Positions 1-34,479 are shown, counted from the stretch's first letter. The stretch: DNA of 64,000 nucleotides from Blastocatellia bacterium (GCA_035576605.1 DATLWF010000196.1:9430-73429); one strand, 5' to 3'. Notes: a model not told the origin generated them from the sequence alone. Program-made: numbers and translations.

Positions 1-2386
1 CGGTTCCTCCGACAGTCACAGTAGCGCCGTCGACGAAATTCGTTCCCGTGATTGTCACCGATGTCCCGCCGGCGGTAGTCCCAGTATTCGGCGAGACCGA
101 TGTAACGGTGGGTGCGCCACTGCCGCCTCCACCTGATTTCGGCAAAATAGTCGTATCGTTCTTTAGCGCACCGGGCGCCGTGTTCAAGTAGGTCGATGGC
201 GATAGCACTATCTGATCAATAGACAGTCCGTCCTCTCTGACCTGTATTCTAATTGTGTGGGTTCCGCTCCCGGAGAAGTAGATGAGCGGCCCCATGACCC
301 CGACACCCCAACCATTGTCTTGCCACCCCCAACCCTGCAGACCGCATCCCGTGCAATCTTCCAGGTTGATGGCGGAACCTGATGTTGTTCCGATTCTAAA
401 GACAGGTGCTCCGCCGCTGCCATCAAGGCTGTCTGAAAACTGCGCAAATACCGAATCGTTCCCCCAGTAGTCGGCCTGAGCTTTGCCTCTTATCCACAGC
501 CGATAGCCTGTGGATGCGTCCGCCTGAAAGGTCATTTCAAAATAATCTGACGGGTTTGGAAGCGCGTCCGCCAATTTGGGGGCGCCGGCATCTGGATTGG
601 CCAGCCTGAATCCGCCGGCGGCTGACGCATCCGATACGACGTTCCAATTTCCCACTCTAACCGGGGCCTCCGAAGCATACATCACCACGTCGGCCGAAGT
701 CGGCGGAGGTGGAGGCGGAGGAGTTGTGTAGGTGAAGGAATTGGCTAGCGTTCCGTTTTGGCCATCAGTGTTAGTCACAATCACACTAACGGCGCCTGCC
801 GAGTGCGCCGGCGTAACCGCCGTAATTGTAGTGCTGCTGGTCACGTTGATACTGGTCGCCGCCGCGCCGCCAATACTCACGCTTGCGCCTGACAGAAAAT
901 TGGTTCCGGTGATGGTAACAGCCGTTCCACCAGCCGTGCTTCCGGTGTTCGGCGATATAGATGACACAGTAGGCGCAGGGCCGGGCGCCCCCCCTGCCGT
1001 GGTAAAGCTCCAGGTTGGGCCGCTCGCCGTCATGTTGGCCATCGTCTTGCTCACAATACGCCAGTAGTACTTCGTCGCCGCTTGTAGCGATTGCGGCGCA
1101 AACGTTTCCGGGATCGATCCGTTGTCCACCGATCCAATGAACTGATCAGCGGCCAGAAGAGGCGGGTTGGGGTTGGTGCCAAAGTAAATGTCGAATTTTT
1201 GAGCGTATGGTCCGCCTTCCCACGCCAGCGTTACGTTGGTAGCCACGCCAGTAGCATTGTTCGCGGGTGTTTGATAGGAGGGCGGATCGGGCGGAAGAGG
1301 AGTGAATGGTTGCGTCTCAGTCGTTGAATTCCATTTACGCTCGAATTGATTCACAAACCAATTGAAGAACCATGACTTGGTAGTGAAGTAGTTGTTCTCT
1401 GCCTGGCAGTTCGCCGACGGACCGGTCCAGTTTGATGAGCCGAATATTGTGAGCCCCTGCCCATACAGCATCGAAACCTTTTCGTGATTCAACCCCTGAT
1501 GCGCTCGAATCCTTATCTGAACTCCGGCATTGTAGAGTAAATCAACATTATAGGAATCCCACGGCCGGGTTGGATTCCTATATTCGTTTTGCTCGGTGAG
1601 CAGACGGACCGGTATTCCGCGATTCACCGCGGCTATGGTCATGTTGGTAAATCCCAAATTGGTGATGCGATACATAATCACATCGATCTTCCGTGTCTCA
1701 CCATTAAATGCACTGAGGCTGCGATTATAGAAACTCTCCGAACCGTCGGCGCTTGGCGGGAAGTTCAGTTCGGGATCTATCGGATACGTGGGATAGCGGC
1801 GGCTCAAAGCTCCGCTGATATTTGCGTAGTTCCCATAATTGGTTGTATCGGTCCACATATCGTCCATGATGGTCTTGAAACTGTTCAAGACCGACGAAAC
1901 GCTTGTGAAGTAGATTGCTTCATCTATGTAATCCACGTAGGGCTGATTCGGCACGAAGAAGAACGGGCCATAGTTCGCGCCGCTGAATTCGATCTGACCC
2001 TGTCCTACAAACAGCATGAACTTTCGGTGCAGAATACAGTCGGCTACCTTGTACCGCATCGGGATACCGGCAGCTCGAAACTGATCGAGTATCTGCTGAT
2101 TTCCAGCGTAGGTGTCGCTTGCCCTCGGGTCGCACAATATCCGGACCGGAACGCCCGCTTGAAACCGAGCGATTATCTTGTTCGATAGCGATGTGTCCTG
2201 TATGAACCAAAAAGAGACGTCTATACCCACCGTCTCATTGTCAATGAGAGTCCATAAGGGCTGACGGCAGTCCTCAAAGGAGGTGTCGCACAGTCGCTCC
2301 ACCTGAGCAGATGTTTGCCCGGCTGCAAACAGCACTAGTATTGCCGATAAGGGAAGACTAAAGGCGAATCGTTTAATGGACGTCAT
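1..2386 (-). CDS. Secreted multidomain protein, 3'-partial (C-terminus lies beyond the window start): signal peptide, PLD-like (HxK...GSxN x2) region, a conserved ~190-aa cysteine/tryptophan-rich domain shared with CDS 51831..55115, and IPT/TIG-like Ig domains
   Basis: Not in the ORF track because it runs off the window edge. Hand-translating the minus strand from ATG at 2386 (RBS GGAACGAGG upstream) gives MTSIKRFAFSLPLSAILVLFAAGQTSAQ... HRKFMLFVGQG...SGAN and HEKVSMLYGQG...GSSN are HKD-like motifs. The C-terminal stretch ...PNPSDYFEMTF...CTGCGLQGWGWQDNGWGVGVMGPLIYFS...TTILPKS is about 70% identical to part of CDS 51831..55115. Confidence 0.55.
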   Translation of the reverse strand, partial: MTSIKRFAFSLPLSAILVLFAAGQTSAQVERLCDTSFEDCRQPLWTLIDNETVGIDVSFWFIQDTSLSNKIIARFQAGVPVRILCDPRASDTYAGNQQILDQFRAAGIPMRYKVADCILHRKFMLFVGQGQIEFSGANYGPFFFVPNQPYVDYIDEAIYFTSVSSVLNSFKTIMDDMWTDTTNYGNYANISGALSRRYPTYPIDPELNFPPSADGSESFYNRSLSAFNGETRKIDVIMYRITNLGFTNMTIAAVNRGIPVRLLTEQNEYRNPTRPWDSYNVDLLYNAGVQIRIRAHQGLNHEKVSMLYGQGLTIFGSSNWTGPSANCQAENNYFTTKSWFFNWFVNQFERKWNSTTETQPFTPLPPDPPSYQTPANNATGVATNVTLAWEGGPYAQKFDIYFGTNPNPPLLAADQFIGSVDNGSIPETFAPQSLQAATKYYWRIVSKTMANMTASGPTWSFTTAGGAPGPAPTVSSISPNTGSTAGGTAVTITGTNFLSGASVSIGGAAATSINVTSSTTITAVTPAHSAGAVSVIVTNTDGQNGTLANSFTYTTPPPPPPPTSADVVMYASEAPVRVGNWNVVSDASAAGGFRLANPDAGAPKLADALPNPSDYFEMTFQADASTGYRLWIRGKAQADYWGNDSVFAQFSDSLDGSGGAPVFRIGTTSGSAINLEDCTGCGLQGWGWQDNGWGVGVMGPLIYFSGSGTHTIRIQVREDGLSIDQIVLSPSTYLNTAPGALKNDTTILPKSGGGGSGAPTVTSVSPNTGTTAGGTSVTITGTNFVDGATVTVGGT
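130..700. repeat. Protein-coding direct repeat, copy A (about 75% nt identity to 52660..53240)
   Basis: Antisense ORFs 282..470 and 52804..53013 give near-identical peptides (...TPTPQPLSCHPQPC...). Sense translations share ...PNPSDYFEMTF...GCGLQGWGWQDNGWGVGVMGPL...KNDTTILP. Confidence 0.6.
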
Positions 2387-2879: not shown

Positions 2880-3587
2880 CTAAACCGGTTCCAACCACTC
2901 ACGCTGTCTTACTTGTGAACAGTTCTTGTCGGCGACAAACGCCGCTATGTGCCCAGCCAAACCACGGATCCGGTGCAATGACCACCGGCAGCTTTCCTGC
3001 GGACCTGCTTCTGAGTCAATTAATTCTGGCTTTCCGGTGAACGAGACTTCGAACGAGTTCAATGGACGAGAGAGCCCTTCGCCGGTTGCTTTGACGTATG
3101 CCTCTTTGCAGACCCAGTACGTCAGAAACGCCGTACTCTTTTCACTGGGGTTGAGTCGGCGAATAGAAGCAGCCTCCGCAGGAGAGAAAAAGCGCTCGGC
3201 GAGCTGGTCCACTTCAAGATCCTGGCCTTCGCGCTCAACATCTATGCCAACCTCCACATCCGATGCAATTGCATACAGGACCAGCTCTCGTGACCGAGAC
3301 AGGTTGAACGTCAATGCATTCTCATATGGGTTGGCAAGGACAGGTTTCCCATTCGGCGTAGTCGAGAAACGGATCTCGCGCGGCTCAACGTCAAGATATC
3401 GACCAAGGATGGTTCTGAGTAACGCGCGTGACACGACGAAGCGTGCGAAGTGTTCTCGCACGCGAAGCCGTTCAGCCCTCTCGCGTTCATCGTTCGCAAG
3501 CTGGGTCAACAAGCGGGCGAGCATTGCCGGCCGTCCCAAAGCGGCGCTCCAAACGTGAACTTCACCTTGCTTTAACTGTAAATCCAT
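2880..3587 (-). CDS. 4'-phosphopantetheinyl transferase, Sfp/EntD type
   Basis: Motifs GEVHVW, GKPV, FNLSRS (FNxSHS-like), GIDVE and WVCKEAYVKATG. The ORF-track start at 3614 is TTG. ATG at 3587 (MDLQLKQGEVHVW) is preferred. Lies 26 nt downstream of the NRPS stop. Confidence 0.75.
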   Translation of the reverse strand: MDLQLKQGEVHVWSAALGRPAMLARLLTQLANDERERAERLRVREHFARFVVSRALLRTILGRYLDVEPREIRFSTTPNGKPVLANPYENALTFNLSRSRELVLYAIASDVEVGIDVEREGQDLEVDQLAERFFSPAEAASIRRLNPSEKSTAFLTYWVCKEAYVKATGEGLSRPLNSFEVSFTGKPELIDSEAGPQESCRWSLHRIRGLAGHIAAFVADKNCSQVRQREWLEPV

Positions 3588-3640
3588 CCGCGCCCGGCCC
3601 TCGAGGAAAACCAATACCGCGTCGTTGTTCCAGCGTGCGT

Positions 3641-6600
3641 CTAAGGCAGGTCAGTCAATTCGGACCGTGACTCTTCGAGACACCTCTTCAACGTCTCAGC
3701 CAGCTGGCGCACATGATTCGTCACGCACGTAATATGTCCGCCGGGAACCGTTTGAACGTCCACCGTCGTAGCTACTCTGCTCCATCCCGCAGTTGGATCG
3801 CCGTCTTCCAGCGCCAATTCTGAAGGCCACACGACAGTAACTCGGCCGCGATACGGTGCAGGGACGTATCCCTGGATCGCTCTAGAGTAGGCGGCAGTCG
3901 CACGCTTCCGCCCGTCGACTGGAATCGAGGCGTTGATGTCAGATCCCATCGGCGCGCCTTGCGAATTACCGTTTCTTTGAATGGAGGCAAACGCCACGGC
4001 CAGGTTTGCCGCCGCTGTCCAGCTTTTCTTCTTGATGAAAGCGATTCGCTCATCTGTCTGCAGTCGCAAGAATTCTGTAAGCCGGGCTCTGTAGTAATCC
4101 TTTATCTCCTGAACACGGGTAAGTCGCTCCCGGTATGCAAGGAAGCGATCCAGCCGTTGCTCGCTTCCCAGCTTGTCAAGATCGCTCAAGCGATTAACTA
4201 CCTTGTGGAGAAGCTTGAATCGAAGCGCGTTTCTCACAGAAGCGCAAAGAAGGACAAGCATATCGATCTTCTCACCCTGGGACTGCAATAGTCGCGCGAT
4301 CTCGAACGCCACTGCCGCGCCGTTACAATAACCGCCTAACAAGTACGGCCCTCGCGGCTGAAACTCCCGAAGCGCCGGCAGGTGGCTTTCGGCCATCGCC
4401 TCGATTGTCGAAGGAATCGGGCCCCCATCCAGTCCGTGGGGCTGAATTGCATAGAACGGCTGGTCATCTCCGAGTCCGTGCGCGAGATTTTGGCAATAAA
4501 ACCCGCCGCCGTTGAAATCGCCATGCAGGAAGAAAAACGGCCGCTTTGATCCTCCCTTGCCGATCTTAACAATGGCTGAGTGAGTCCGGGCCGTCTCTTG
4601 CTCGAGTATCGTAGCCGCTAGATGCTCGATGGTCGCCTCTTCGAATAGAGTCGCGAGTGGAAGCTGTCGCCCGGTTACTTGCTCGATCCGCCCCATCATT
4701 CGAACCGATAGGAGCGAATGCCCGCCCAGCTCAAAAAAGTCGTCTCGTATGCCGACCGGAGTTACCTTCAAGATTTCTTCCCAGATCTCGACGAGCTGTC
4801 GCTCAAGCGGATCTCGTGATCGAACATACTTATCGTTCGGAATAATCTGCGTTGAATCCGGCGCCGGCAATCTTGTGCGATCCACCTTTCCACTATTTGA
4901 GATCGGCAACTCATTCAGCGCTACGAACAAAGACGGAACCATGTATCCGGGAAGCTTCTTCTTCAAGAAGCTGCGCAATTGATCTCGGAGCTCGCTTTGC
5001 GCGAATGAATCGGCGCTTCCACGCGGCACAACGTAAGCCACAAGTCGTTTTTCACCGGGTTGGTCCTCTCTGGCGATGACCATGGCATCGTGGACGTCCG
5101 GGCTGGAGCACAGCGCTGTCTCAATCTCTCCCAACTCGATACGGAAGCCGTTTACCTTGACTTGATCGTCTATCCGACCAGCGATTTGAATATTGCCGTC
5201 GGGAAGATACAGTGCAAGATCACCTGTCTTGTATAACCGCGCGAAAGGCTCAGCACTGAACGGATCTGGTATGAATTTCTCTGCGGTGAGGTCAGGATGA
5301 TTCAGATATCCGCGGGCAAGGCCGGCTCCCCCGATGTGCAACTCGCCAATTACACCAACAGGAGCTGGTTGATGATGTCGGTCAAGGATATAAACTCGAG
5401 CATTGGGAATGGGTCGCCCCACCGGCGCATCCGAGACTCCAGCAGTTGATGGCTTCGGTTTCGATAAGTCCGCAATCGTAGCAACGATGGTCGCTTCGGT
5501 TGGCCCGTAGGTGTTCAGGAGCCGCACGCCTGAAGGAATGCGCTCGTGCCAGGCGGCCATTCGCTCGGGGAGGGCTCGCTCTCCTCCGATGATGACCAGC
5601 CGTGTCGTTTGAGGCAACGACAATCCTTCAGCAACAAGGCTGGTAGTCAGTTCGTGCCAAAAAGCCGTCGGCAAATCCAGCACAGTTATGCCCCAGTCTG
5701 TGCACTGCCGCAAGAATCCCGAGATAGACTTCAGCATAGCGTCAGTACGCAAGACAAGGGTTGCGCCTCGCGCGAGGGAGGAATAAATCTCTTCGGCGCT
5801 AGTGTCGAAGCTGCTGGAGGCGAATTGCAATACTCGATCGCCGGGGGTTATGCCGAATTCGTCGCTCGCGAAATCTATGTAGTTAGTTAAAGAGCGATGC
5901 TCTATCAGGACCCCTTTCGGTGTTCCCGTAGAGCCGGAGGTGTAGATCAGGTATGCGAGATTCTCGGGGGTCACACGGCGGGGCGGATTCTCGGTCGAAT
6001 GCCGACCGATCACCTCCCAGTCTGAATCAAGACAGATTACGCGCGCATCGGTTGCGGGTAGTTCCCTGGCGAGTTGCTCCAGGGTCAACAGCACCGGGGC
6101 GCTCGAATCTGCAAGCATCGCCGCCAATCGTTCTGTCGGATAAGCACTATCCAGCGGCACGTAGGCGCCACCGGCCTTCAAAATACCCAGCAAGCCCACG
6201 ATCATCTCAGTCGAACGACCTACCAACAGGCCAACCAGCTTCTCGGGCCCTACGCCGAGCGATGTCAGATAATGCGCCAGTTGATTAGCCCGCCTGTTTA
6301 GTTCGCCATAGGTCAATTGTGCGTTCGCGCAGATGACCGCAACCGCGTCCGGCGCCTTCGCCGCTTGCTCCTCAAACATCCGGTCAACCGAAGTCCGCGG
6401 TGAGTTGATTGAGTTATTGCTGTTCCATTCGACGACGATCTGATGTCGTTCGGCGGCCGTAAGCATCGGCAATGTCGAGACTGGTTCGTGGACGTAGGAC
6501 GACATGCCTTCAAGCATTGTCATCAAGTGTCCGAGCATTCGTCGGACCATTGCTTGGTCAAAACGTTGTCGGTCATATTCGATCTTCAGCAATAAGGTCT

Positions 6601-7825
6601 CGCCCGACCAGCCCGAGAGCGAGAGCGGGTAACTGGTCTCTTCGAAAAGCTGCAAGTCGCGAATCTCCCAGTTGGTCCAATGCGATTGAATCAGCGACTG
6701 AAGGTCGTAATTCTCGAACATCAGAATGCTGTCAAAGAGCGGCCTTCTGCTAATCACTTCAGACCATTCTTGAATTTTGGGCAGCGGAGTGTTTTCGTAT
6801 TCCCGCAGATTCAGATGTTGCGCCCGGAGTTCCTTGAGCCAGGAGCTAAGGGGTTGGTCTTCCGGAACGGTCACACGAATGGGCAGCGTGTTTATGAACA
6901 GACCAACAGATTCAGCGCCGTCGGATGAGCCCCGACACGCCCGTATCCCTCCAAACACAACATCCGCCTCGCCGCTATAGCGGCTGAGGAGCAGCGCCCA
7001 CGCAGCTTCCACCAGGGTGTAAAGCGTGACGCCGTTTTCCAAGGCAAGCGTTTTCAGCGTTGAAGTCAGAGCCGCCGTCAACCGAATCGCCTGCTCGTCG
7101 TGACCGGTCTGATCTCCCGAAATCGCACCGGGGTTCCGGGCCTCCGGAAGCGGAGTGGGACTGGTAAACCCGCTCAATGTGCTGCGCCAGAACCGCTCGG
7201 CTCTACTCATATCGATCTGTTGGAGACTCTCGATATGCTCACGAAACGGACGCGGCGGCTCTAAGCAGAGAGACGCGTCGTCACAAAGCGCCTCATAAAA
7301 CGCGTGAGTCTGACGCAGAACCTCGACAAGCGATCGGCCATCGAGCAACAGGTGATGAAACGTCAATACGAAATGAAAATCGCGCTCGCCGATATGAAAC
7401 AAGCCAATCCTCATCAACGGCGCCCGCGTTAGATCAAACCCCCTTGTACGATCGTTCTGAAGATAATCCTCGAGCCGCGCTTGCTGATCGACAGACCGCA
7501 CGGAACGCCAGTCCTCGTGGTGCAGTTTCAGGTGAGCAAGCGCGTGAACTTCCTGGTGAGGCTCATCGAGACCATCCCAGCGAAAGCTCGTTCTTAGAAT
7601 CGGATGCCGGTCCACAACCTGCCGCCATGCCCTCGCAAAGGCTTCTATGTCGAGATTGGCGTGAATAGTAAAAAGGAATTGCTCGATGTCAACGCCCGGC
7701 TCCCGAGCGTAAAGCGTATGAAAGAGCATCCCCTGTTGAAGCGGCGAGAGTGCATATGAGTCTTCAATTGCGCGGTGCCCCGGCATTCCGATTGGTTTTT
7801 CCGGTTCAACGGCGATGACGGTCAT
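3641..7825 (-). CDS. Single-module nonribosomal peptide synthetase, C-A-T-TE
   Basis: C domain HHLLLDGRS. A-domain core motifs LAYLIYTSGSTGTPKGV, YKTGDLA, GRIDDQVKVNGFRIELGEIE, NSGKVDR. Carrier motif LGGHSLL. C-terminal alpha/beta-hydrolase TE with GGYCNG in place of GxSxG (Cys codon TGT at 4325-4327, minus strand) and a distal GGH. Confidence 0.9.
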   Translation of the reverse strand: MTVIAVEPEKPIGMPGHRAIEDSYALSPLQQGMLFHTLYAREPGVDIEQFLFTIHANLDIEAFARAWRQVVDRHPILRTSFRWDGLDEPHQEVHALAHLKLHHEDWRSVRSVDQQARLEDYLQNDRTRGFDLTRAPLMRIGLFHIGERDFHFVLTFHHLLLDGRSLVEVLRQTHAFYEALCDDASLCLEPPRPFREHIESLQQIDMSRAERFWRSTLSGFTSPTPLPEARNPGAISGDQTGHDEQAIRLTAALTSTLKTLALENGVTLYTLVEAAWALLLSRYSGEADVVFGGIRACRGSSDGAESVGLFINTLPIRVTVPEDQPLSSWLKELRAQHLNLREYENTPLPKIQEWSEVISRRPLFDSILMFENYDLQSLIQSHWTNWEIRDLQLFEETSYPLSLSGWSGETLLLKIEYDRQRFDQAMVRRMLGHLMTMLEGMSSYVHEPVSTLPMLTAAERHQIVVEWNSNNSINSPRTSVDRMFEEQAAKAPDAVAVICANAQLTYGELNRRANQLAHYLTSLGVGPEKLVGLLVGRSTEMIVGLLGILKAGGAYVPLDSAYPTERLAAMLADSSAPVLLTLEQLARELPATDARVICLDSDWEVIGRHSTENPPRRVTPENLAYLIYTSGSTGTPKGVLIEHRSLTNYIDFASDEFGITPGDRVLQFASSSFDTSAEEIYSSLARGATLVLRTDAMLKSISGFLRQCTDWGITVLDLPTAFWHELTTSLVAEGLSLPQTTRLVIIGGERALPERMAAWHERIPSGVRLLNTYGPTEATIVATIADLSKPKPSTAGVSDAPVGRPIPNARVYILDRHHQPAPVGVIGELHIGGAGLARGYLNHPDLTAEKFIPDPFSAEPFARLYKTGDLALYLPDGNIQIAGRIDDQVKVNGFRIELGEIETALCSSPDVHDAMVIAREDQPGEKRLVAYVVPRGSADSFAQSELRDQLRSFLKKKLPGYMVPSLFVALNELPISNSGKVDRTRLPAPDSTQIIPNDKYVRSRDPLERQLVEIWEEILKVTPVGIRDDFFELGGHSLLSVRMMGRIEQVTGRQLPLATLFEEATIEHLAATILEQETARTHSAIVKIGKGGSKRPFFFLHGDFNGGGFYCQNLAHGLGDDQPFYAIQPHGLDGGPIPSTIEAMAESHLPALREFQPRGPYLLGGYCNGAAVAFEIARLLQSQGEKIDMLVLLCASVRNALRFKLLHKVVNRLSDLDKLGSEQRLDRFLAYRERLTRVQEIKDYYRARLTEFLRLQTDERIAFIKKKSWTAAANLAVAFASIQRNGNSQGAPMGSDINASIPVDGRKRATAAYSRAIQGYVPAPYRGRVTVVWPSELALEDGDPTAGWSRVATTVDVQTVPGGHITCVTNHVRQLAETLKRCLEESRSELTDLP

Positions 7826-7832
7826 GGCGTTA

Positions 7833-8996
7833 TCAAGTCAGTCGCGCGGGAGCTACTTCACTGGGTGGATCCAGCTCGATCACGTCGTACAGCTCGCGGA
7901 CCGCGCGCGCGGTCGCCATGCCCGGTTCATAGAAGAGCTCACTGGCCACCGCCCGCCGCGAAGCCGACTGGGAGTACGAATCGCCAAAGCATCTTTCGAC
8001 CGCGGCAATTGTTTCGCCAACATCTCGGACGGTTATCGATGCTTCGCGCAACAAATCTACATATTCAGGGTTGATGTCCGTTCTCGCGATGAGTTCCGGA
8101 ATGTCGATTCGAACAACCGGGCGATCAAGCAAAAGGTATTCGAACCCGACCGAACTGTGATCGGTGATCAATACGTCGGCCGCGGCGAGATAAGGACAGG
8201 CGTCGCTGCCATCAGCCAGCCATCCGCCACCGCGCCGAAGGATCGGTTCGAGGCGCGCCGCCCAGTCGATGCCGCCGGAATGTTTGTATTGCAGATCGCG
8301 GGACCGATCGTGCAGCTTGACGATCACCGCATAACCCGCGGCCACAAGCTTCTGCACCAGAGCTTCTCCCATCACGTTGAGCGATGAGTAAGGAGACCAT
8401 GTTGGCGCATAGAGAACCGTGCGCCTCGCAGGGTCGATGCCAAGCTCATCGAGCACGTCATCTCGACTAAGCGATCCATCGACCAGACAGTCAAGCTTTG
8501 GATAGCCGACCAGTCGCGCCGCCGGGCTATCGGCGTCAATGGCGCCCACACGGATGTAGTTTTCCATCCGTCGACGATTGATGAAAAACAGGCGGTCCCA
8601 GTCGCGCATCGAGCGGTCCGGGGTGTCATAAACGCGGCTGTACTTGCCAGCCACGCCGTGAAACATTTGAATGCGCCGCGTGCCCCTGGGGAGTGTCACC
8701 CATAGCATGTCGGCGACCAGGTACGCGCTGAATTTCATCAGCGCGGCGCGCGCCGGGCTTACGAGGTTGACATTGCCTCCGATCTCGCCATAAATCGTCT
8801 TCGCCGCGGACGGCTGTTCGCTCGCCGTGAAGAAGAACGTCACTCGCGAGTCTTGCATAGCGCGATAAATTGGAACAATGACCGCGGAGTTCATCGCCGT
8901 TCGCGCGTTGACCAGAACGCAGCGACCCGGGTGGATTCGCCGCTGCCATCGCGTATCCGTTTGCTGCACCCATTTCGTGATGTTGCTCAGAGGCAT
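7833..8996 (-). CDS. CDP-alcohol:polymer polyol-phosphate transferase, TagF/TagB/TarL family
   Basis: VLYAPTWSPY and VLITDHSSVGFEYLLLDRP match the TagF catalytic-domain signatures (LYAPTWR ... ITDYSS). ATG at 8996, 7 nt upstream of the NRPS start. Confidence 0.7.
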   Translation of the reverse strand: MPLSNITKWVQQTDTRWQRRIHPGRCVLVNARTAMNSAVIVPIYRAMQDSRVTFFFTASEQPSAAKTIYGEIGGNVNLVSPARAALMKFSAYLVADMLWVTLPRGTRRIQMFHGVAGKYSRVYDTPDRSMRDWDRLFFINRRRMENYIRVGAIDADSPAARLVGYPKLDCLVDGSLSRDDVLDELGIDPARRTVLYAPTWSPYSSLNVMGEALVQKLVAAGYAVIVKLHDRSRDLQYKHSGGIDWAARLEPILRRGGGWLADGSDACPYLAAADVLITDHSSVGFEYLLLDRPVVRIDIPELIARTDINPEYVDLLREASITVRDVGETIAAVERCFGDSYSQSASRRAVASELFYEPGMATARAVRELYDVIELDPPSEVAPARLT

Positions 8997-9008
8997 TCGA
9001 CGTCTCTT

Positions 9009-9791
9009 CTAAAAGCGTTCGCCGATAGCAGTTGTGGCAAAGGCAAGTGGGCGATCGAAAGTCAATTCCGCCTTTTCAATTTCAGGCAAGATCTCGCTAA
9101 TCGCTCGGTCGTAGTCCTCGGGAAAATCAATTTCGATCCAGGGCAATCCGCGCGTGCCGATGGCGTGCAGCGGCCGGACACGAGCAAATTCGCGGAATGC
9201 CCGCGGCGCCCATTCCCGGTCTGTTCCTTTCGCGATCAGCATCCCCATTTGTCTCGTGAGAATCGCGGCGCCGCGCGAACCGAATTTTACAATGCCGACA
9301 TTCTCACCATCTGCCTCATCGGGATTAATCGCTTTGCTTATGTCCACAACCCGTCCCGCTCTAACTTTGACCTTCATTTCTTCGTCTCCAAACCGAGCGG
9401 TTGTCTCGTCTTTATAGGCAATCAACAGCGCGTCCTCATAACGAGCGGTCAGCAGGTCAGTAATCAGTTGTGGGTGATAGAGCACGTCTGAGTTCAGAAC
9501 CACGAACCCATCGACAAGCCGATGTCTTGCAAGCCAGAGCGAGTAGAGGCTGCTTGTGCGGAAGAAGATAGGATTCTCGATATACTCGATATCAGGCCCG
9601 CACTCCCTTCGCACTGTGTCGGCGGAGAACCCGACCACTGCGCTTATGTGGTCGATGCCGGACTCACGAAGCGTCACAATCTGACGCTCGATGAGCGAGA
9701 GCGCTCCGACCCTTGCGAGGCACTTCGGCTTATCGCCGGCGACTCCTCTCAACCGTGATCCTTTGCCTGCTGCAAGAATGATCGCGTTCAT
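9009..9791 (-). CDS. Sugar/polyol-phosphate nucleotidyltransferase (LicC/TarI/IspD-like cytidylyltransferase fold)
   Basis: N-terminal MNAIILAAGKGSRL nucleotide-binding motif. C-terminal LPWIEIDFPEDYDRA. RBS AAGGAG upstream of ATG 9791. Confidence 0.7.
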   Translation of the reverse strand: MNAIILAAGKGSRLRGVAGDKPKCLARVGALSLIERQIVTLRESGIDHISAVVGFSADTVRRECGPDIEYIENPIFFRTSSLYSLWLARHRLVDGFVVLNSDVLYHPQLITDLLTARYEDALLIAYKDETTARFGDEEMKVKVRAGRVVDISKAINPDEADGENVGIVKFGSRGAAILTRQMGMLIAKGTDREWAPRAFREFARVRPLHAIGTRGLPWIEIDFPEDYDRAISEILPEIEKAELTFDRPLAFATTAIGERF

Positions 9792-9806
9792 CTGTGTTCC
9801 AGCTCC

Positions 9807-11384
9807 TTAAGCGGCCGCGGCCGCACTCGCTCGTTTCAAGAGCTCTCTTACCTTCGCGAAATACCACTGTCTCTCTTCGCGATCGATTGCCAGCATTAGA
9901 AATACCGCCAGGTAGATTAATCCAGCGGTTATTGCCTGAAGAGCGATCGCAGGGAGATTCACGCTGATGACGTTTCGGGTGATCGCGAGAAACGACGCCA
10001 TAACGACTAACGGCCAGAGCGGAGGGAAGATTGCGGTCTTCAGGGCCTCACGCGTACTCAACTGCACTCTCCGGCAAGCCGCCGGGAACAGCACGAAGAT
10101 AGATACGGAACCCACCGCGATCAGAGTGCCAAGCGCTACGCCAATCAACCCAAGATGGCGAACCAGAACAATGCTCATGGCCAGGTTTGCAAGGGCGATT
10201 AACAGGTTCGATGTCGCCAGCAGCCTGTGTTGACCGGCGCCTTTCAGCAATGTCGTCGCTGTTGAATTCCCCACGCGGATTGCAACCGCAATAGTCAGAA
10301 TGTGAATGATGGGCACGCTGCCTGCAAAGTCAGGTCCCACCCACGCCAATACCAGAGGCTCGGCAAGCAGGCTCAAACCGGTCGCAATGGGAACAACCAT
10401 CGCCAGCGATATGCGAGTGCCCTGTATGAACAATTGTCGCAGCCGGTCAGCTTGCCCAACGGTGGCGGTATCCACAATGATCGGAAACATGGCTCCGTTC
10501 AATTGGCCGGTGACGATCTGGACTGCCTCAATCAACCGCTGTGCGACTGCCCAAATCGCAATCGAGACGGTGCCCATAAAGGCGCCTATCACTATCGCAT
10601 CTGTTGAGTAGTTAACCTTGTTTGCAAGGTCAATCAATAATATGAAGGCGCTAAACCCGGTGACCTCGCGCAGTCGCGCCAGCCGCACGTTAGACAGGCG
10701 AATTCGCAAACCGGGATAGGCCCGGTAGGCGTTTAACGCATAGCCGATATGACTCAGCGCACGAATCGTTGTAGTTGCAGCGACCAGTTCCACGAGGCCG
10801 TATCCGCCCAGGAGCACCGCTACATTGACACACGCCACCACGATGCTGGTCGAGATGGATACGGAGCCGTTAAGATAGTGGCGCTGAAACCCGTTTACGA
10901 TTCCACCGAACACGCTGACGGGAAAGCCAAGCGCGACGTAGGCGCTGATTATTAGCAGAACCTGTCGGCCGATATCGGCTTGTGCCGGGGTTATGTTGAA
11001 AAACTTTTGCAGATTGAAAGCCAAGAAGGCGCCGATTGCAAAGGCAATCAGTCCTATGACGCAGAATCCCAGAAAGAGACTGCTCACAATTTGATTGAGG
11101 CCTTCACTGTCACGGCGAGCGCGGTACTCCGATGCGAATTTCACCTGAGCGACCCCATACCCGAGGTCTAGCATGGAAAAGTACGCTGTTACGGAGGCGA
11201 CGAGAACCCATAGCCCGTAGGTAGACGGTCCCAGGCGTCCCATATTGAAAGGGAGCATCACCGCGCCGATCAGGACGTCAACCCCAAGGGCAACATAGTC
11301 CATCGAGATGTTTCGGGCGAAGATGTCGAGCTGATTGAACTCGCGCCCCCATACCGGATCGCCTTCGGCTCTGGCCTTGCTCAC
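9807..11384 (-). CDS. Polysaccharide biosynthesis membrane protein, Wzx/PST (MOP superfamily) flippase-like
   Basis: 525 aa, about 12 hydrophobic segments throughout. GTG start at 11384 overlaps the stop of the upstream GT2 (GTGA); an alternative ATG lies 27 codons in. Confidence 0.65.
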   Translation of the reverse strand: MSKARAEGDPVWGREFNQLDIFARNISMDYVALGVDVLIGAVMLPFNMGRLGPSTYGLWVLVASVTAYFSMLDLGYGVAQVKFASEYRARRDSEGLNQIVSSLFLGFCVIGLIAFAIGAFLAFNLQKFFNITPAQADIGRQVLLIISAYVALGFPVSVFGGIVNGFQRHYLNGSVSISTSIVVACVNVAVLLGGYGLVELVAATTTIRALSHIGYALNAYRAYPGLRIRLSNVRLARLREVTGFSAFILLIDLANKVNYSTDAIVIGAFMGTVSIAIWAVAQRLIEAVQIVTGQLNGAMFPIIVDTATVGQADRLRQLFIQGTRISLAMVVPIATGLSLLAEPLVLAWVGPDFAGSVPIIHILTIAVAIRVGNSTATTLLKGAGQHRLLATSNLLIALANLAMSIVLVRHLGLIGVALGTLIAVGSVSIFVLFPAACRRVQLSTREALKTAIFPPLWPLVVMASFLAITRNVISVNLPAIALQAITAGLIYLAVFLMLAIDREERQWYFAKVRELLKRASAAAAA

Positions 11385-12487
11385 TTTGCCCCCGCCCTCT
11401 GCGCTGAAGCACTCGGCTCGATCGATTGTGCTGTTGAGGAGGAGTTTTGCCTGGTCACATATACATCTGGCGGAACCCGGTCACCGCCCGCGAGCGAAAC
11501 ATCGACTGCGTTGCCGGTCGCTCCGTCGCGTTTGCGATCCTTAAATCGCTGCCTGACAATGCCCGCGAAGAACCACAACCAAAGCTCATGCTCGAATGCA
11601 GCCACCCGATCACGATGCACCTCGGCGCTAATCATGCTCTTGAACGCTCGTAGAGAAGACCGATACATATAGCGCGGGACGCCACCTATATGCGGGACTC
11701 TCGAGTAATCGAGACTTGTTTCTTCCGGCGCCTCCATATCGACTCTTGATTGCGCATAAAGCATCGCACGACTTACGCCGTGCCAATAGAACCACCGACG
11801 AAAATACCGTTTAGTCAGTCGGTCTGCCGGGATGATGTGGTGGACTGTCATTTCGGGGGCATAGAAACCCGCGAGGCCGGCCGCCCGCGCTCTCAGTCCC
11901 CACTCGCGCACTTCTTGACCGAGCAAAGTGCCGGCCTTGCGACCTACACGGTTGTCCCACAATCCGGCGCGCTCGAACGCTTCTCGGCGAAAAGCTATGT
12001 TCACGCCGAGGGGCATCAGCCTGCTAAACTCGAATGGCTCGGCGCCATAGTCGAGCAAGGCGATAACCGCCCAGTGGCGTCCGCCGCGGTTAGGAAGCCA
12101 ACGCGGCCGGGGCGCGCCCCAGATCGGCAATACCTTGCCGCCTACATAATCGCAATCGAGGCGCTCCAGTGCTTCACCAGCACGATCAAGCCAGTCCTTT
12201 TCCACGCGAACGTCGTCATCCGTAGTAACGATGATCTCGCCACTTGAAGCGCGAATGCCCGCGTTCAAGGCAGCGCACCGTCCCTGCTCCGGCTCGAAGA
12301 CATACCGCAACGGAACCGGAAACCACTGCTGAGCTTCCCGAACAACCGCGTGGGTGTGGTCCGATGAGTTGTTATCCACGGTTATCACTTCCCACTTGTC
12401 TCGCGTCGACACCGCTGCAATGCTGCGGAGCGTCTGTTCCAGGTCGCTGGCGCGATTGTACGTAGCTATGACAACCGAGAATTTCAT
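11381..12487 (-). CDS. Glycosyltransferase family 2
   Basis: MKFSVVIATYNR...VITVDNNSSD...DDD motif arrangement typical of GT2. Confidence 0.8.
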   Translation of the reverse strand: MKFSVVIATYNRASDLEQTLRSIAAVSTRDKWEVITVDNNSSDHTHAVVREAQQWFPVPLRYVFEPEQGRCAALNAGIRASSGEIIVTTDDDVRVEKDWLDRAGEALERLDCDYVGGKVLPIWGAPRPRWLPNRGGRHWAVIALLDYGAEPFEFSRLMPLGVNIAFRREAFERAGLWDNRVGRKAGTLLGQEVREWGLRARAAGLAGFYAPEMTVHHIIPADRLTKRYFRRWFYWHGVSRAMLYAQSRVDMEAPEETSLDYSRVPHIGGVPRYMYRSSLRAFKSMISAEVHRDRVAAFEHELWLWFFAGIVRQRFKDRKRDGATGNAVDVSLAGGDRVPPDVYVTRQNSSSTAQSIEPSASAQRAGAK

Positions 12488-12554: not shown

Positions 12555-13742
12555 TTAGGTAAACTGCGTGGCAACGGCCGCCCGAGCTAGTGGATAGCGC
12601 GGGCTGGCGGTTGTTTCGGGCTCTCGTCTGATATTATCGCGGCTCCCCGCAGTCTCACTGATACTCATTTCCAGAGTCCTGCTGAACGCATGGAGAAATG
12701 GTATGTATTGACCGGCTCCGAGCTCTACATCGCGGATGACAGCGTCAAACAGCTGGCGATAGTGGGTCACCAGCGAATTGGAGATTCCAATCCTCCGAGC
12801 GATGGTCGTTTGTGACGGAGATGAGAGATCGAAGTAACAATACCAGGCGACTCGCGCCAGCCGGCTGTATCGACGCGGCTTGTGTCTAACCACTTCTCGC
12901 ATCTTATCCAACAGTTCCACGGCAATCGCCTCGGCCTGCTGGTTAGTTTCGTTTTCGAGAAGTCGCTGCTCAGGCGTTGGTCTCTGGTCAGGAAAATCCA
13001 CCTTGAGTGGTTCCGGGTCCGAGACGGCGTCAGGCGTTACCGCTGCATCAATGGAAACAAACCGCGAATCTTCCACCGGCAGCTTGGACAACGCCAGAGA
13101 TCTTACAATTCGAACATCCAGCGGCGAGTCCACCGCCCTGAATATCTCGACTAAGAGATCAGTCAGATCCCGATTCGAAATAATTATGTGCGAGCTGCCG
13201 CCCCTTCCCGCTCGCCTCCGGTCACGTCCTCTATAAGCAACGTCCTTTAGCAAATCCTCCATGTTTTGATGGGCCCTTGTCGGCTTGTCGTCAGGCCATT
13301 CTCTCAACCCGAAAACCCTCGTGCTTAACTTGCCCTCGGAGTGGTTGGCTCCAAGTGTGCGCCGATATCTGCGAAACTCAGCGCTGGTTTGGACCAGATT
13401 GCTGATGCGGCGCGCCATCCGGTACGCTTCCGGCTGTCGCTCGCGCAACAGCAGCGAAACCAGGTTGGGAACTTCAATATGGTAAAGTTCATGCTCAATA
13501 TTCGCATTCGAATAGCCGGCGTCTACGTAATGCCGCCAGCGATCCTTCCGGTGGAGCTTTAGGAATAGATCTTGAGTCACATCCGCGTTCAGATCCTGTA
13601 GCCGTGCGCGCGCGATTCTGTCTGAGTTGAACAGAGTCCTGATTGACGAATGTCTCGATACTAACTTGAACAGTTTGTCCCACAATGCTGCAGCGTCATT
13701 GTCGGTAAGAATTTCAATCCAGCCCCTTGCTTGCTCGTTCAT
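12555..13742 (-). CDS. Hypothetical regulator: N-terminal sigma-70 region-2-like segment and C-terminal HTH separated by a long insert
   Basis: N-terminus WIEILTDNDAAALWDKLFKLV...DVTQDLFLKL resembles ECF sigma region 2. C-terminus TTIARRIGISNSLVTHYRQ is HTH-like. About 200 aa of basic/low-complexity sequence lie between. Confidence 0.35.
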   Translation of the reverse strand: MNEQARGWIEILTDNDAAALWDKLFKLVSRHSSIRTLFNSDRIARARLQDLNADVTQDLFLKLHRKDRWRHYVDAGYSNANIEHELYHIEVPNLVSLLLRERQPEAYRMARRISNLVQTSAEFRRYRRTLGANHSEGKLSTRVFGLREWPDDKPTRAHQNMEDLLKDVAYRGRDRRRAGRGGSSHIIISNRDLTDLLVEIFRAVDSPLDVRIVRSLALSKLPVEDSRFVSIDAAVTPDAVSDPEPLKVDFPDQRPTPEQRLLENETNQQAEAIAVELLDKMREVVRHKPRRYSRLARVAWYCYFDLSSPSQTTIARRIGISNSLVTHYRQLFDAVIRDVELGAGQYIPFLHAFSRTLEMSISETAGSRDNIRREPETTASPRYPLARAAVATQFT

Positions 13743-14109: not shown

Positions 14110-14979
14110 TTATGTAATGGAACCGGCCACCTGACCGTAGACAGGAAGGTCGGGGCGCGAGAGATCACTCGGCGTGATGTCCAGAGCTTCGATCACGTCG
14201 GCTATTATGTCGCGGAAAATCGTCGCCTGGCCCGCAGCGTAACCATACAACAGCGCGTTATCGCAGATGTTATTGATCACCCGCGGTATTCCGGCGGACG
14301 CCAGGCCGATCAATTCGATTGAGGACGGATCAAAGATATTGACCCGCCCAGCTCCGGCAATCCTCAGTCTGAAGCGAATGTAGTTATTGATCTCGTACAA
14401 ATATAGCGGCCTGATTGAACAGCGCAGCGATACCCGCTGCTTAAGCTGTCGCAGTCCGGGCTGATTCAGAATCTCCCGAAGCTCGGGCTGGCCGCAAAGA
14501 ACTATTTGCAAGAGCTTTTCGCTGTTTGTCTCAAAATTCGCCAGTAGCCGCACCTCTTCCAGCACGGCCGGCGAGAGCCCGTGCGCCTCATCTATGATCA
14601 GAACAGTGCGCAAACCGCGTGAGTGTCGTTGCGCCAGACAGGCGCCTATTGCATTCAAGAGGTCTGCCTTCGAAGCGGTTGAGCCGAGACCGAGATTGAG
14701 ACCGCCTGAGAGGAGTTGGAAAAACTCTGCGACCGTCACGAACGGATTGAATAAGTACACTGATAGAATGTCTGGACCGAATTGCTGCAGAACCGACCGC
14801 AAGGTGGTCGTCTTACCTGTGCCGACTTCGCCCGTGACGACCGCGAGCCCTTTGCTCTGTGATATACAATATTTCAGATTTGACACTACCTCCAGATGGC
14901 TGTCGGTTTTGTAGATGAACTTTGGATTTGGGGTTAATCCAAACGGTATCTCTTTGAGCCCATAAAACTCCGTGTACAT
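14110..14979 (-). CDS. ExeA/GspA-like AAA ATPase (PEP-CTERM locus secretion-ATPase type)
   Basis: MYTEFYGLKEIPFGLTPNPKFIY N-terminus, Walker A VTGEVGTGKTT, Walker B VLIIDEAH. ATG 14979 directly follows the upstream kinase-like gene's TAG (14980-14982). Confidence 0.8.
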   Translation of the reverse strand: MYTEFYGLKEIPFGLTPNPKFIYKTDSHLEVVSNLKYCISQSKGLAVVTGEVGTGKTTTLRSVLQQFGPDILSVYLFNPFVTVAEFFQLLSGGLNLGLGSTASKADLLNAIGACLAQRHSRGLRTVLIIDEAHGLSPAVLEEVRLLANFETNSEKLLQIVLCGQPELREILNQPGLRQLKQRVSLRCSIRPLYLYEINNYIRFRLRIAGAGRVNIFDPSSIELIGLASAGIPRVINNICDNALLYGYAAGQATIFRDIIADVIEALDITPSDLSRPDLPVYGQVAGSIT

Positions 14980-16653
14980 CTATCGTTCCCCCAGTCGAAA
15001 ATATCTACTGTCGGTATCCCCATACCGGCGCAAATACCGTGTAGGCCGCCGCCATTTGGCCTTGCCCTGGCGAAGGCGCTGCGACGTAGATGACGGTCTC
15101 GCGACAGGTTGCGGACGAACCGCGGCTCTTGCCTGAGTCGTGGCGCCCTGAGCGTTAGCCGGCTTGGCCTCCTGGTGTGTTTCGGCAGGCGGCTGATGGT
15201 CGCCGGCAGGCGGCGGACTGGTGACTACCGGCTTTTCTCCCGTTCCCTTGGAAGAGGGCAGGGCCGCCGTGCGATCGATGCCGGCATCGCTGCCCTCGGC
15301 CGTCGGTTCCGAAACTGTCCGATTTGGGAACCTGGAACGGTCAGCGCGTGCGAGTATTAATATCCCGATTAATGCCGCAATCGCCATCGCTAGGACCAGC
15401 ATCACCGGTCTCCATTGACTGCGTAATGCGAACGTCGAGCTTAGTTCATGGCTTAGCAGCACATCGCGTGGTGTTTCGAGGCGCTCATTCGAAGGCGGAT
15501 CTGGTTCTCTTTCCTCATCTACGGTCTCGGTCCCCAGATCCAGGGTATGAACCTGATCAACCGGCGACTCGATCACCCTGATCGACGGCGGCTCCCACGG
15601 TTCACGGCTCGCGCCATCCAAGAGGCTCTCCAGTTCGATAGGACTTTGGTCGTCTTCGTATCCAATGTCCAACGGTTGCGACTCACAACCATCGCTCCAG
15701 CCCGCCATGGTAGGAGGTTGACTTGTCGAGCGGTCCAGCGCCTCACGGAAGGAAGTCACATCTTGAAATCGTTTGTTGGGGTCTTTTTCAAGCATGCGCG
15801 TGATAATCGCCGACAACGAAAACGGGATATCCGAGCAATAAAGATGTGGTGCCCGGGGCGAATGGGTCACATGCCTTTGCCTGACAGTGTCAGGGTCTTC
15901 CGAATCTACCGGCAGCCGATCGGTGAGCATCTGGTAGAAGACGACTCCCAGGGAATACAGATCGCTGCGCGCATCGAGCGCTTCTCCACGTGCCTGTTCG
16001 GGACTGATATAGTGCAAGGGACAGGCGCTGGCGCGCTCTTTGTGCGCCCAGGCAAGATCGCCACGGGCCTCCACCCCGAAGTCGGATAGCAAGGCTGCGC
16101 CATCCGTGCCAATTAGAACGTTTTCGGGATGAACGCTGAGGTGGAGAACCCCGAGCGAATGGGCATAGTCGAGCGCATCGGCGATCTGTAGAACGATTCC
16201 TAGTGCGAGCCCAAGGTCAAGCCAGCCCCGGCGGTCCAGCAACATTTTTAATGTCTCGACGTCGGGCCGACGCTCCAAAATTGAGAAATGTGTGCCGTTG
16301 ATCTCCTGAGGTCCGCTTGATCTGACAATATTGCGGTGCGATAGCCTTGCGGCCGCTGATGCCTCCAGACGAAACAACTCTAGTCGCCTTAGATCGTCAC
16401 CGTGCGCATGCAGGACCTTTAAGGCTACCGGTCTATCATCGCGCCGATCGCGTCCATGGTAGACGGCAATACCGCCCCGATCGCTCACCAAACTGAGACA
16501 ATCGAATCTACTGGACAAAACCTCGGTAGTATCGCACTCGGTAGTATCGCAGACGCTTCCACCATTGGTAGGCGTTTTTGAGACAGGTGCCAGGGCGCTA
16601 GCCAAGTTCGGATCGTTGGTGCCGGCTGCTTTTTGGAGTTCAAACCCGCTCAT
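14980..16653 (-). CDS. Membrane-anchored Hanks-type Ser/Thr protein kinase-like protein, predicted pseudokinase
   Basis: Kinase subdomains present: ALKVL (beta3 Lys), LSDFG, SPEQ, DLYSLGVVFYQMLT. The catalytic loop reads GVLHLSVHPENVLI instead of HRDLKPEN; Ser codon AGC at 16135-16137 replaces the catalytic Asp. One TM segment PVMLVLAMAIAALIGILILA, then a Pro/Ala-rich C-terminal tail. Confidence 0.75.
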   Translation of the reverse strand: MSGFELQKAAGTNDPNLASALAPVSKTPTNGGSVCDTTECDTTEVLSSRFDCLSLVSDRGGIAVYHGRDRRDDRPVALKVLHAHGDDLRRLELFRLEASAAARLSHRNIVRSSGPQEINGTHFSILERRPDVETLKMLLDRRGWLDLGLALGIVLQIADALDYAHSLGVLHLSVHPENVLIGTDGAALLSDFGVEARGDLAWAHKERASACPLHYISPEQARGEALDARSDLYSLGVVFYQMLTDRLPVDSEDPDTVRQRHVTHSPRAPHLYCSDIPFSLSAIITRMLEKDPNKRFQDVTSFREALDRSTSQPPTMAGWSDGCESQPLDIGYEDDQSPIELESLLDGASREPWEPPSIRVIESPVDQVHTLDLGTETVDEEREPDPPSNERLETPRDVLLSHELSSTFALRSQWRPVMLVLAMAIAALIGILILARADRSRFPNRTVSEPTAEGSDAGIDRTAALPSSKGTGEKPVVTSPPPAGDHQPPAETHQEAKPANAQGATTQARAAVRPQPVARPSSTSQRLRQGKAKWRRPTRYLRRYGDTDSRYFRLGER

Positions 16654-22730: not shown

Positions 22731-22793
22731 GTCGCCTCCCACGTCGTCAGTTAGTCTCTGCAGGCAGTAAGCAGGACACATAGGCCGAATAAT

Positions 22794-28777: not shown

Positions 28778-28794
28778 TCTCCTTTCAATGGCGT

Positions 28795-31329: not shown

Positions 31330-31350
31330 CAACAGATTCCTCAGCGAGTC

Positions 31351-34436: not shown

Positions 34437-34479
34437 AATTTCGGCTCGCTCATTCAAATTTCTGTTCGCTCGACACTCA

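Follow-up and report, generated by a model that had tools for sequence, protein, structure and literature searches.

Three nonribosomal peptide synthetase (NRPS) thioesterase (TE) domains with a cysteine nucleophile have been characterised structurally: ObiF, which forms a β-lactone, SulM, which forms a β-lactam, and the functionally uncharacterised AB3403 (PMC11298585, PMC6668435). The Cys variant of the nucleophile elbow is a recognised, less common one among NRPS TEs (PMC11298585). In NRPS TEs the usual place of the triad Asp is after strand β6 (position I); ObiF and SulM carry their acid after β7 instead (position II), with Gly occupying position I of ObiF (PMC11298585, PMC6668435). AB3403 combines a Cys nucleophile with an Asp kept at position I (PMC11298585). 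The subject here is a further Cys-type TE, the terminal domain of an NRPS encoded at 3641..7825, minus strand, of a 64,000-nucleotide stretch of DNA (“the window”) from Blastocatellia bacterium (GCA_035576605.1 DATLWF010000196.1:9430-73429). What is new is the combination: an AB3403-like Cys-TE with a non-acidic residue at position I, in a single module predicted to use Lys, inside an exopolysaccharide (EPS) operon.

The nucleophile of the terminal thioesterase and its clade

The features of the NRPS gene, all on the minus strand, are as follows.

3641..7825, minus: NRPS gene, 1394 aa, a single condensation-adenylation-carrier-thioesterase (C-A-T-TE) module (from the list of open reading frames (ORFs), translation and Pfam)
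6437..7765, minus: condensation (C) domain (Pfam), with an intact HHLLLDG motif at residues 157-163 (7337..7357)
4886..6376, minus: adenylation (A) domain, code DTEDIGTIVK (taken via motif anchors), predicted to activate L-Lys
4607..4798, minus: carrier domain (T, or peptidyl carrier protein), phosphopantetheine site Ser1037 in GGHSL, codon 4715..4717 (Pfam PP-binding and motif)
3644..4594, minus: thioesterase domain, residues 1078-1394 (Pfam PF00975, AlphaFold2 model, Foldseek)
4325..4327, minus: Cys1167 (TGT), very probable catalytic nucleophile in GGYCNG (translation, alignments, model, conservation)
4244..4246, minus: Cys1194 (TGC), position I, directly after strand β6 in LVLLCAS (offset and model)
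3818..3820, minus: Glu1336 (GAA), candidate triad acid at position II, two residues past strand β7
3734..3736, minus: His1364 (CAT), triad histidine in VPGGHITC, on the loop after strand β8 (sequence and model)

The 1394-aa protein is a termination-type NRPS with one C-A-T-TE module; Pfam places Condensation at residues 21-463, AMP-binding at 484-841, AMP-binding_C at 900-980, PP-binding at 1010-1073 and Thioesterase at 1111-1221. An identical gene call is present on the 80-kb source metagenome contig (ENA ERZ27256713), and no membrane segments are predicted. The TE lies directly C-terminal of the carrier domain and scores 79.1 bits against PF00975 (cut-off 26.4), the profile being matched only at positions 16-130 of 226 because the TE lid is divergent. 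An earlier reading of this DNA, made from the sequence only, had placed the TE at 3641-4500; the region was the right one, but 3641 belongs to the stop codon of the gene and the domain in fact spans 3644..4594, so that roughly the first 30 TE residues had been left out.

In place of the GxSxG elbow of type I NRPS and polyketide synthase (PKS) TEs, the domain reads GYCNG. The translation of 3641..7825 holds PRGPYLLGGYCNGAAVAFEIA around the elbow, and the minus strand reads tat-tgt-aac at 4330..4322, which agrees exactly with the TGT codon that the sequence-only reading had put at 4325-4327. Its substitution of Cys for the catalytic Ser is borne out by several lines of evidence. In pairwise HMMER alignments the Cys column corresponds to the nucleophile Ser of the PksA TE (3ils) and of the 7crn bifunctional TE, no other residue falling at the nucleophile position in alignments to solved thioesterases. 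When the TE alone was compared with all PDB sequences, the matches were NRPS, PKS and fatty acid synthase thioesterases, and the top one, AB3403 (4zxh, E 4e-14), had Cys in the same column (GGWCFGG, “GPYFLGGWCFGGAIAYEI”). In an AlphaFold model built from a 95-sequence alignment (mean predicted local distance difference test score 92.1, predicted TM-score 0.89), strand 84-89, Cys90 and helix 91-105 (TE numbering) form the strand-turn-helix of a nucleophile elbow. Taken together, these observations leave little doubt that Cys1167 acts as the nucleophile.

A trivial explanation would be a sequencing or assembly artefact, in which a true TCT or AGT Ser codon was misread as TGT: a single base change would suffice. 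This was one of two objections that the sequence-only reading had raised against itself, and it is not upheld. Cys occupies the nucleophile column in 232 of 242 retrieved relatives (Ser in 8), which come from independent assemblies and include that of a syntenic Blastocatellia metagenome-assembled genome (MAG; locus L001, described below), and two contigs are on record with an identical 1394-aa protein. Together, conservation and the second contig exclude an error at this codon for practical purposes, the chance of one being negligible. The Cys is thus under selection throughout a large clade, of which AB3403 is the sole solved member.

A word-indexed search with the TE retrieved 108 relatives, nearly all reading GGYCxG, with Ser-bearing members only at the weak end of the list. 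A HMMER scan of 1.84 billion cluster representatives found at least 752 proteins (50%-identity clusters) at E<=1e-30, and a scan of one genome per prokaryotic species gave 222 confirmed clade loci. The best 80 of these 222 are mostly from soil MAGs: Acidobacteriota (Blastocatellia, Terriglobia), Ktedonobacteria/Chloroflexia, Methylomirabilota, Verrucomicrobiota (Chthoniobacterales) and Binatia. The statement that Cys-type TEs are rare is thus fair for characterised enzymes (apart from reviews, a literature search for Cys-TE surveys brought up just the papers on ObiF and SulM) and wrong for nature, given 752 clusters and 222 loci.

Some further features of the clade may be noted. The residue directly after the nucleophile Cys is Asn in 158 of 242 relatives, an arrangement previously noted solely in SulM, as Q-C-N (PMC11298585). 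Three additional TE cysteines, Cys34, Cys290 and Cys305 (near window positions 4493, 3725 and 3680), are conserved in 74%, 49% and 57% of the clade, respectively; Cys290 sits three residues past the catalytic His (GGHxTC). One locus (L085, 10001..18407) has two clade C-A-T-TE genes (1386 and 1343 aa) in tandem, each with its own TE.

Solved relatives and the remaining triad residues

The modelled TE has an α/β-hydrolase core with a long helical lid of ~120 residues (TE residues 121-241). In a Foldseek search against the PDB, AB3403 (4zxh) ranks first at E 1.1e-14, followed by the Pks13 TE, the 7crn TE, the human fatty acid synthase (FAS) TE, the NocB TE and EntF, with probability 1.00 to the AB3403, Pks13, FAS, NocB and EntF TEs. 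With AB3403 at the top by both sequence and fold, and with its GGYCxG elbow, the TE fits the AB3403-like Cys clade.

AB3403 (ABBFA_003403, Acinetobacter baumannii, 4ZXH/4ZXI) resembles the NRPS examined here in having C-A-T-TE within one protein of ~1,300-1,400 aa. The differences are considerable: identity is ~20% over the Foldseek alignment, the lid is longer here, and the position-I Asp of AB3403 is not kept, Cys1194 standing in its place. AB3403 was crystallised with glycine in its A domain, whereas the A code here predicts Lys, and the C-A region is nearer to modules of LgrA, McyB, TycB and PvdL than to AB3403.

The Pks13 TE of Mycobacterium tuberculosis fills most of Foldseek ranks 2-27 (E ~1e-13). 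It is also the best NCBIfam match of the TE, at 37.9 bits, far under the family cut-off; no specific NCBIfam family was found for the TE, only weak Pks13 and EntF matches. An exosortase-associated hydrolase/ligase family was considered for the NRPS and rejected, given the lack of a specific NCBIfam TE family and an A domain far below the TIGR03098 cut-off. The Pks13 TE, at 16-18% identity, differs in having a Ser nucleophile and an Asp at the usual place, and it belongs to a PKS rather than an NRPS, so that the likeness is a mechanistic analogy only. It releases its acyl chain onto a sugar, trehalose, and not onto water, which indicates that this fold can acylate a sugar. A more distant parallel is offered by the polyhydroxyalkanoate synthases (PhaC, classes I-IV), which have an α/β-hydrolase fold, a G-x-C-x-G elbow and a Cys-His-Asp triad, and which, instead of hydrolysing, transfer and polymerise acyl groups by way of a thioester formed on the enzyme; they are an unrelated family, with coenzyme A substrates and no carrier domain.

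Could the TE be a ring-forming enzyme of the ObiF/SulM type, catalysing 4-exo-trig closure to a β-lactone or β-lactam? Like ObiF1 (obafluorin β-lactone) and SulM (sulfazecin β-lactam) it has a Cys nucleophile in GxCxG, and its β6 site, too, is non-acidic; a conserved Glu, a candidate triad acid, lies after β7, where they have their Asp; the Asn right after Cys, found in 158 of 242 relatives, is shared with SulM. Against this, neither ObiF nor SulM matches the TE alone at E<=1 in a PDB sequence search, neither is in the Foldseek top 50, and the motif used, along with a positively charged pocket, as a criterion in SulM mining, Gln-Cys-Asn, has only its Asn in common with the Tyr-Cys-Asn found here. 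The substrates of both carry a β-nucleophile on the terminal residue (a β-hydroxy amino acid; a diaminopropionate sulfamate); the A code here matches Lys codes, and as the predicted Lys has neither a β-hydroxyl nor a β-amine, β-lactone or β-lactam chemistry is unlikely. A codes across the clade are, moreover, very diverse. Membership of the ObiF/SulM family, considered because of the Cys and the displaced acid, was rejected on sequence, fold and predicted substrate, and ring closure of this kind appears very improbable. The association of Cys-TEs with unusual offloading therefore holds for ObiF and SulM themselves; it does not extend readily to a TE that is nearer to AB3403 and Pks13 and has a predicted Lys substrate.

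The distal GGH histidine claimed by the sequence-only reading is retained: “cat” at 3734-3736, in VPGGHITCVT, encodes His1364. In the model the last core strand (275-283, TE numbering) is followed by His287 on the next loop, and the His is kept in 197 of 219 aligned relatives. The sequence-only account did not mention that the usual NRPS-TE triad Asp after β6 is absent. Cys1194, 27 residues past the nucleophile, occupies that position: the model strand 110-116 (TE numbering) ends just ahead of it, and at the same offset most acid-keeping relatives have Asp. The position-I column in relatives reads D 76, A 33, E 20, G 19, C 17, H 11, so that Asp or Glu is present in only 96 of 227 aligned. Of the 11 closest homologues, 10 have Cys; P0005 has Gly, and so does P0111, the homologue that is closest over the full length.

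With Cys1194 at the place where Asp is usual, the triad acid may well be Glu1336. In the model, strand β7 (248-257, TE numbering) is followed by S258-E259, E259 being Glu1336, and the surrounding WP[SDT]E motif is invariant in the 11 closest homologues. Among relatives having both Cys and His, an acid is present at TE 258-260 in 92 of 105 that lack a position-I acid, as against 40 of 79 that have one. Two points tell against a swap between positions: the Fisher test (p=5e-8) ignores kinship among the relatives, and AB3403 also has an acid at the β7 spot while keeping its position-I Asp. Relocation of the triad acid to position II, as in ObiF and SulM, is accordingly given about an even chance, a Cys-His dyad being the alternative.

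With two of the three canonical triad residues deviating from the NRPS TE consensus, and with some stand-alone relatives having Gln in the His column, the domain might also be a degenerate, inactive TE serving only for scaffolding or docking. The Cys (97%) and His (90%), like the glycines of the elbow, are, however, among the columns best conserved across the clade; the fold is predicted at very high confidence, and Cys-His chemistry is proven in ObiF and SulM (PMC11298585, PMC6668435). Inactivity is therefore improbable, with only a small chance of being correct.

The stand-alone homologues (P0027, P0039, P0045, P0048, P0054, P0056, P0057) form a subgroup of ~310-370 aa in which the Cys and the position-I Asp are kept, the His column is Gln (Arg in P0057), and a Trp lies three residues further on; these proteins may have a different mode of action or be inactive. 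P0027 and its relatives P0029, P0041 and P0052 (N-termini aligned) share a start segment of the ELSE(A/T)KRALLEKYLRGD type, and P0036, related to this subgroup, bears a TubC_N docking domain.

Predicted substrate and genomic setting

The A-domain code, DTEDIGTIVK, is identical at 8 of 10 positions to that of ScoA (DTEDVGTVVK), the two differences being conservative V-to-I changes. The ScoA code is predicted to be Lys-activating, and DIEDVGSVVK (Rv0101, MmaA) has also been assigned to lysine (bioRxiv 10.1101/121228). Acidic residues at A-domain positions 239 and 278 suit a cationic side chain. The same code is found in two related Blastocatellia loci, L001 and L002, and DAEDIGTIVK in P0111. Judging from these codes, it is quite likely that the A domain activates lysine. 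Against DltA models it scores 294 bits, for a cut-off of 476.

Compared with solved C domains, the C domain scores highest against that of McyB (360 bits) and next against that of PvdL (chain residues 557-1007; 266 bits). TycB C1, SrfA-C and the 461-aa surfactin synthetase C domain 8f7f (~226 bits) are also among the closest, and LgrA C2, Txo1/2 and TycC (2jgp) reach only 81-123 bits. The McyB/PvdL/TycB/SrfA group includes C domains that take D-aminoacyl and fatty-acyl donors, and the LgrA C2, Txo and TycC group includes L-donor elongation domains. The scores thus point to a D-aminoacyl- or acyl-accepting C domain, and hence to an acyl donor acting in trans.

The neighbouring genes, assigned from Pfam and NCBIfam, are:

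1..2386, minus: PLD-like/TIG protein, secreted-type, with IPT/TIG repeats and a pair of PLDc_2 domains; continues beyond the start of the window
2880..3614, minus: Sfp/HetI-type 4'-phosphopantetheinyl transferase (PPTase; Pfam ACPS and AASDHPPT_N, NCBIfam HetI-like at 186.8 bits)
7833..8996, minus: TagF-like (Glyphos_transf) transferase, 7-nt gap to the NRPS gene
9009..9791, minus: MobA-like nucleotidyltransferase
9807..11384, minus: Wzx/MOP flippase
11381..12487, minus: family 2 glycosyltransferase (GT2), with a 4-nt overlap with the flippase gene
12555..13742, minus: unk395, 395 aa, no Pfam family, faint ECF-sigma-like match only
14110..14979 and 14980..16653: PEP-CTERM-type AAA ATPase and Ser/Thr kinase pair beside unk395

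The genes at 7833..12487 lie upstream of the NRPS gene and are co-directional with it, with gaps of <=15 nt or overlaps, and the NRPS gene is the penultimate one of a tight string that ends with the PPTase. The latter lies 26 nt downstream of the NRPS stop (its gene call in the source begins at window position 3587, giving 235 aa), and at least 16 related loci also have a PPTase after the TE. Directly after it comes the PLD-like/TIG protein (1228 aa on the source contig); a PLD/TIG gene also follows the PPTase in L001 (11871..15665), so that it may belong to the same operon. The position of a PLD-type phosphotransferase beside a TagF-like enzyme is suggestive.

unk395 is kept in L001 (72%) and L002 (50%), always between the PEP-CTERM-type AAA ATPase and Ser/Thr kinase pair and the GT2-NRPS genes. 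A role as membrane acceptor or transferase was considered for it and rejected, no hydrophobic segments being evident in its sequence; a regulatory function is more likely, possibly as a dedicated regulator.

Further upstream, to ~51 kb, is an EPS locus of the XrtA/PEP-CTERM type. Its TIGR03013 priming glycosyltransferase (EpsB_2) scores 500.5 bits (cut-off 393); the other markers, TIGR03007, TIGR03018, TIGR03015 (245.9 vs 324.5) and TIGR03097, are under their cut-offs, and no gene for the exosortase itself turned up in the window. On its marker genes, the surroundings of the NRPS gene are of this type. The locus also encodes a chain-length determinant, a tyrosine autokinase, the PEP-CTERM ATPase, a Wzy-like ligase, a Poly_export protein, Ugd, two AsnB-like amidotransferases, a heparinase II/III-like protein, several GT2 and family 4 glycosyltransferases (GT4), a polysaccharide deacetylase and a formyltransferase. 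A literature search for NRPSs together with PEP-CTERM exopolysaccharide gave nothing relevant.

Other observations in this region concern possible accessory functions. At 25956..28951 (minus) are a DUF362 protein and a 522-aa PaaK/CapK-like adenylate-forming enzyme, the latter with a weak NCBIfam match and no Pfam match; this ligase (27383..28951) is ~20 kb off the NRPS gene, and a second activation of a carboxylate in this pathway could be its task. An 845-aa fusion of GT2 and a flippase-type Polysacc_synt membrane domain is encoded at 28795..31332 (minus), and at 43805..45759 (minus) a polysaccharide deacetylase adjoins a formyltransferase-domain protein, a pairing like that of ArnD and ArnA.

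Lys-type NRPS genes adjoin glycan genes in three related contigs. In L001 the order unk395-GT2-Wzx-nucleotidyltransferase-TagF-NRPS-PPTase-PLD/TIG is fully kept at 55-85% identity, with the upstream GT2-Wzx-nucleotidyltransferase-TagF genes 73-85% and the TE 69% identical. In L002 the kinase-ATPase-unk395-GT2 order is kept and is followed, right after GT2, by a Lys-code A-T-TE (6612..9620). Since this locus has no C domain, the core unit conserved with the glycan genes is the A-T-TE(Cys) and not the C domain. The third is P0111, which at 53% identity is the nearest of the full-length homologues; its immediate neighbours are DUF362-CapK-GT2-β-helix-Ugd-GT4 genes, which are the families of window 25956..35706 in another arrangement.

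Glycan genes also accompany some more distant clade members. The P0020 contig has A-T-TE, a PPTase, ABC2/ABC transporter genes, a methyltransferase, GT2, a GT-D-like gene and GT4. In eight Ktedonobacteria/Chloroflexia loci (L047, L055, L058, L062, L073, L075, L076, L080) a subset of a glycan cassette directly follows the TE: polysaccharide deacetylase, GT2, a Wzx-like flippase and an unannotated protein of ~630-670 aa with 9-10 transmembrane segments. All four genes are present in L055, L073, L075 and L080, and the cassette lies at ~10.8-18 kb where the TE ends near 10.8 kb. Its layout recalls that of Arn-type lipid-linked amino-sugar pathways.

Possible transfer of lysine to a glycan

These features would be compatible with an NRPS that attaches lysine to a sugar polymer. 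The A domain would adenylate L-lysine and load it onto the phosphopantetheine of Ser1037, the carrier having been primed by the co-encoded PPTase, and the intact C domain would probably N-acylate the lysine with a donor supplied in trans. The carrier thioester would then pass to Cys1167, with His1364 as base and Glu1336 probably as the acid orienting it; transthioesterification onto Cys has been described as energy-neutral in work on ObiF (PMC6668435). The acyl-S-enzyme would be resolved by a nucleophile other than bulk water, most likely by an amine or hydroxyl group that belongs to an intermediate, either a lipid-linked sugar or a phospho-alcohol, of the pathway formed by the GT2, TagF-like, nucleotidyltransferase and Wzx enzymes; lysyl or N-acyl-lysyl groups would thereby end up on the exopolysaccharide. 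Such transfer, which the sequence-only reading had suggested as transfer onto a polymer, is plausible, and consistent with the operon context and its recurrence. That the acceptor is borne on a glycan is put tentatively, at a little under an even chance, and the whole chain of steps, acceptor included, is advanced with the same reserve.

The arrangement has functional analogues in systems in which carrier-bound amino acids decorate envelope polymers: DltABCD places D-Ala on teichoic acids, and AlmEFG places Gly on Vibrio lipid A. In both, as here, an A domain and a phosphopantetheinyl carrier are found near genes for a phospho-alcohol or glycan polymer (here the TagF-like and nucleotidyltransferase genes), and by analogy a cationic amino acid would give an anionic polymer positive charge. 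Unlike in Dlt and Alm, transfer would be carried out by an in-cis Cys-TE, there is an additional C domain, and no DltB/DltD/AlmG-type transferase is present: among the Pfam/NCBIfam matches of the window ORFs there is no DltB (MBOAT), DltD or AlmG, the sole acyltransferase being an Acyl_transf_3 protein at 21543..22781.

Another possibility is ordinary release: hydrolysis, or attack by the ε-amine to give a caprolactam, would yield a diffusible metabolite of the N-acyl-lysine type, and the location in an EPS operon would reflect co-regulation or chance. Lys brings its own ε-amine nucleophile, and the C domain groups with those of McyB, PvdL, TycB and surfactin synthetases and not with LgrA C2, Txo or TycC; the first C domains of PvdL and SrfA-A take fatty-acyl donors, which would suit an N-acyl-amino-acid product. 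Clade members are also general terminal domains of many multi-module NRPSs that lack glycan genes, and AB3403 is part of a lipopeptide-like pathway, its C domain being supplied by a carrier and a free-standing A domain (PMC10510592). On the other side, the Lys-type orthologues (window, L001, L002, P0111) are embedded in glycan genes in three arrangements, the genes of the operon are <=26 nt apart or overlapping, L002 keeps GT2 beside its A-T-TE although it has no C domain, and no pair of acyl-CoA ligase and carrier adjoins the NRPS gene. Ordinary release is thus a serious possibility, its probability being appreciable while clearly short of even.

Several further points weigh against transfer of lysine to a glycan. 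The C domain implies a second substrate, and a Pfam or NCBIfam scan of window ORFs of >=150 aa turned up no donor, second carrier (PP-binding) or further NRPS, several such ORFs and all small ones being unscanned; the free-standing A domain and carrier of the AB3403 pathway have no counterpart among those scanned. No acceptor, acyl donor or dedicated transferase step was identified in the analysis of the locus, and as the NRPS has no predicted membrane segments, any transfer would need a cytoplasmic or lipid-linked intermediate. For AB3403, the nearest solved relative, the product is not known (PMC10510592), and the AB3403 papers cited here mention no glycan genes (PMC11298585, PMC10510592). 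Finally, clade members P0016, P0113, P0139 and P0148 end ordinary multi-module NRPSs, with many different A codes and no glycan genes, so that the Cys is a clade trait and no marker of polymer transfer. The idea of the Cys-TE as a general marker of glycan association was rejected on the same grounds: the Cys-TE is a general release domain, and glycan association is typical of particular subgroups, including the Lys-type group to which the present gene belongs.

Whether the Lys-type Cys-TE subgroup represents an undescribed NRPS-glycan hybrid pathway is a more speculative matter. In a cytoplasmic one-module NRPS, the thioester-forming Cys-TE would act as an acyltransferase that puts lysine or N-acyl-lysine onto a lipid-linked sugar or a side group of the glycerol-phosphate type, and Wzx would then flip the unit for incorporation into EPS; this proposal is, on balance, unlikely. 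If true, it would be an Acidobacteriota functional counterpart of teichoic-acid D-alanylation, and the Ktedonobacteria cassettes behind Cys-TE NRPSs, whose unannotated membrane protein is GT-C-like, would apply this logic to a peptide cargo.

Release domains determine the final NRPS product, and of the three Cys-type NRPS TEs studied structurally, two perform unusual ring closures. The Cys-TE clade occurs widely among soil phyla that have received little study (Acidobacteriota, Chloroflexota, Methylomirabilota, Verrucomicrobiota), with many members lacking the position-I acid, and it provides a concrete set of targets for learning the role of the Cys. Within it, the Lys-type single-module enzymes that recur in polysaccharide operons offer a simple test case for NRPS-dependent aminoacylation of glycans, which, if it occurs, would be a new means of decorating and charge-tuning the exopolysaccharides of bacteria and would put NRPS chemistry to a new use.

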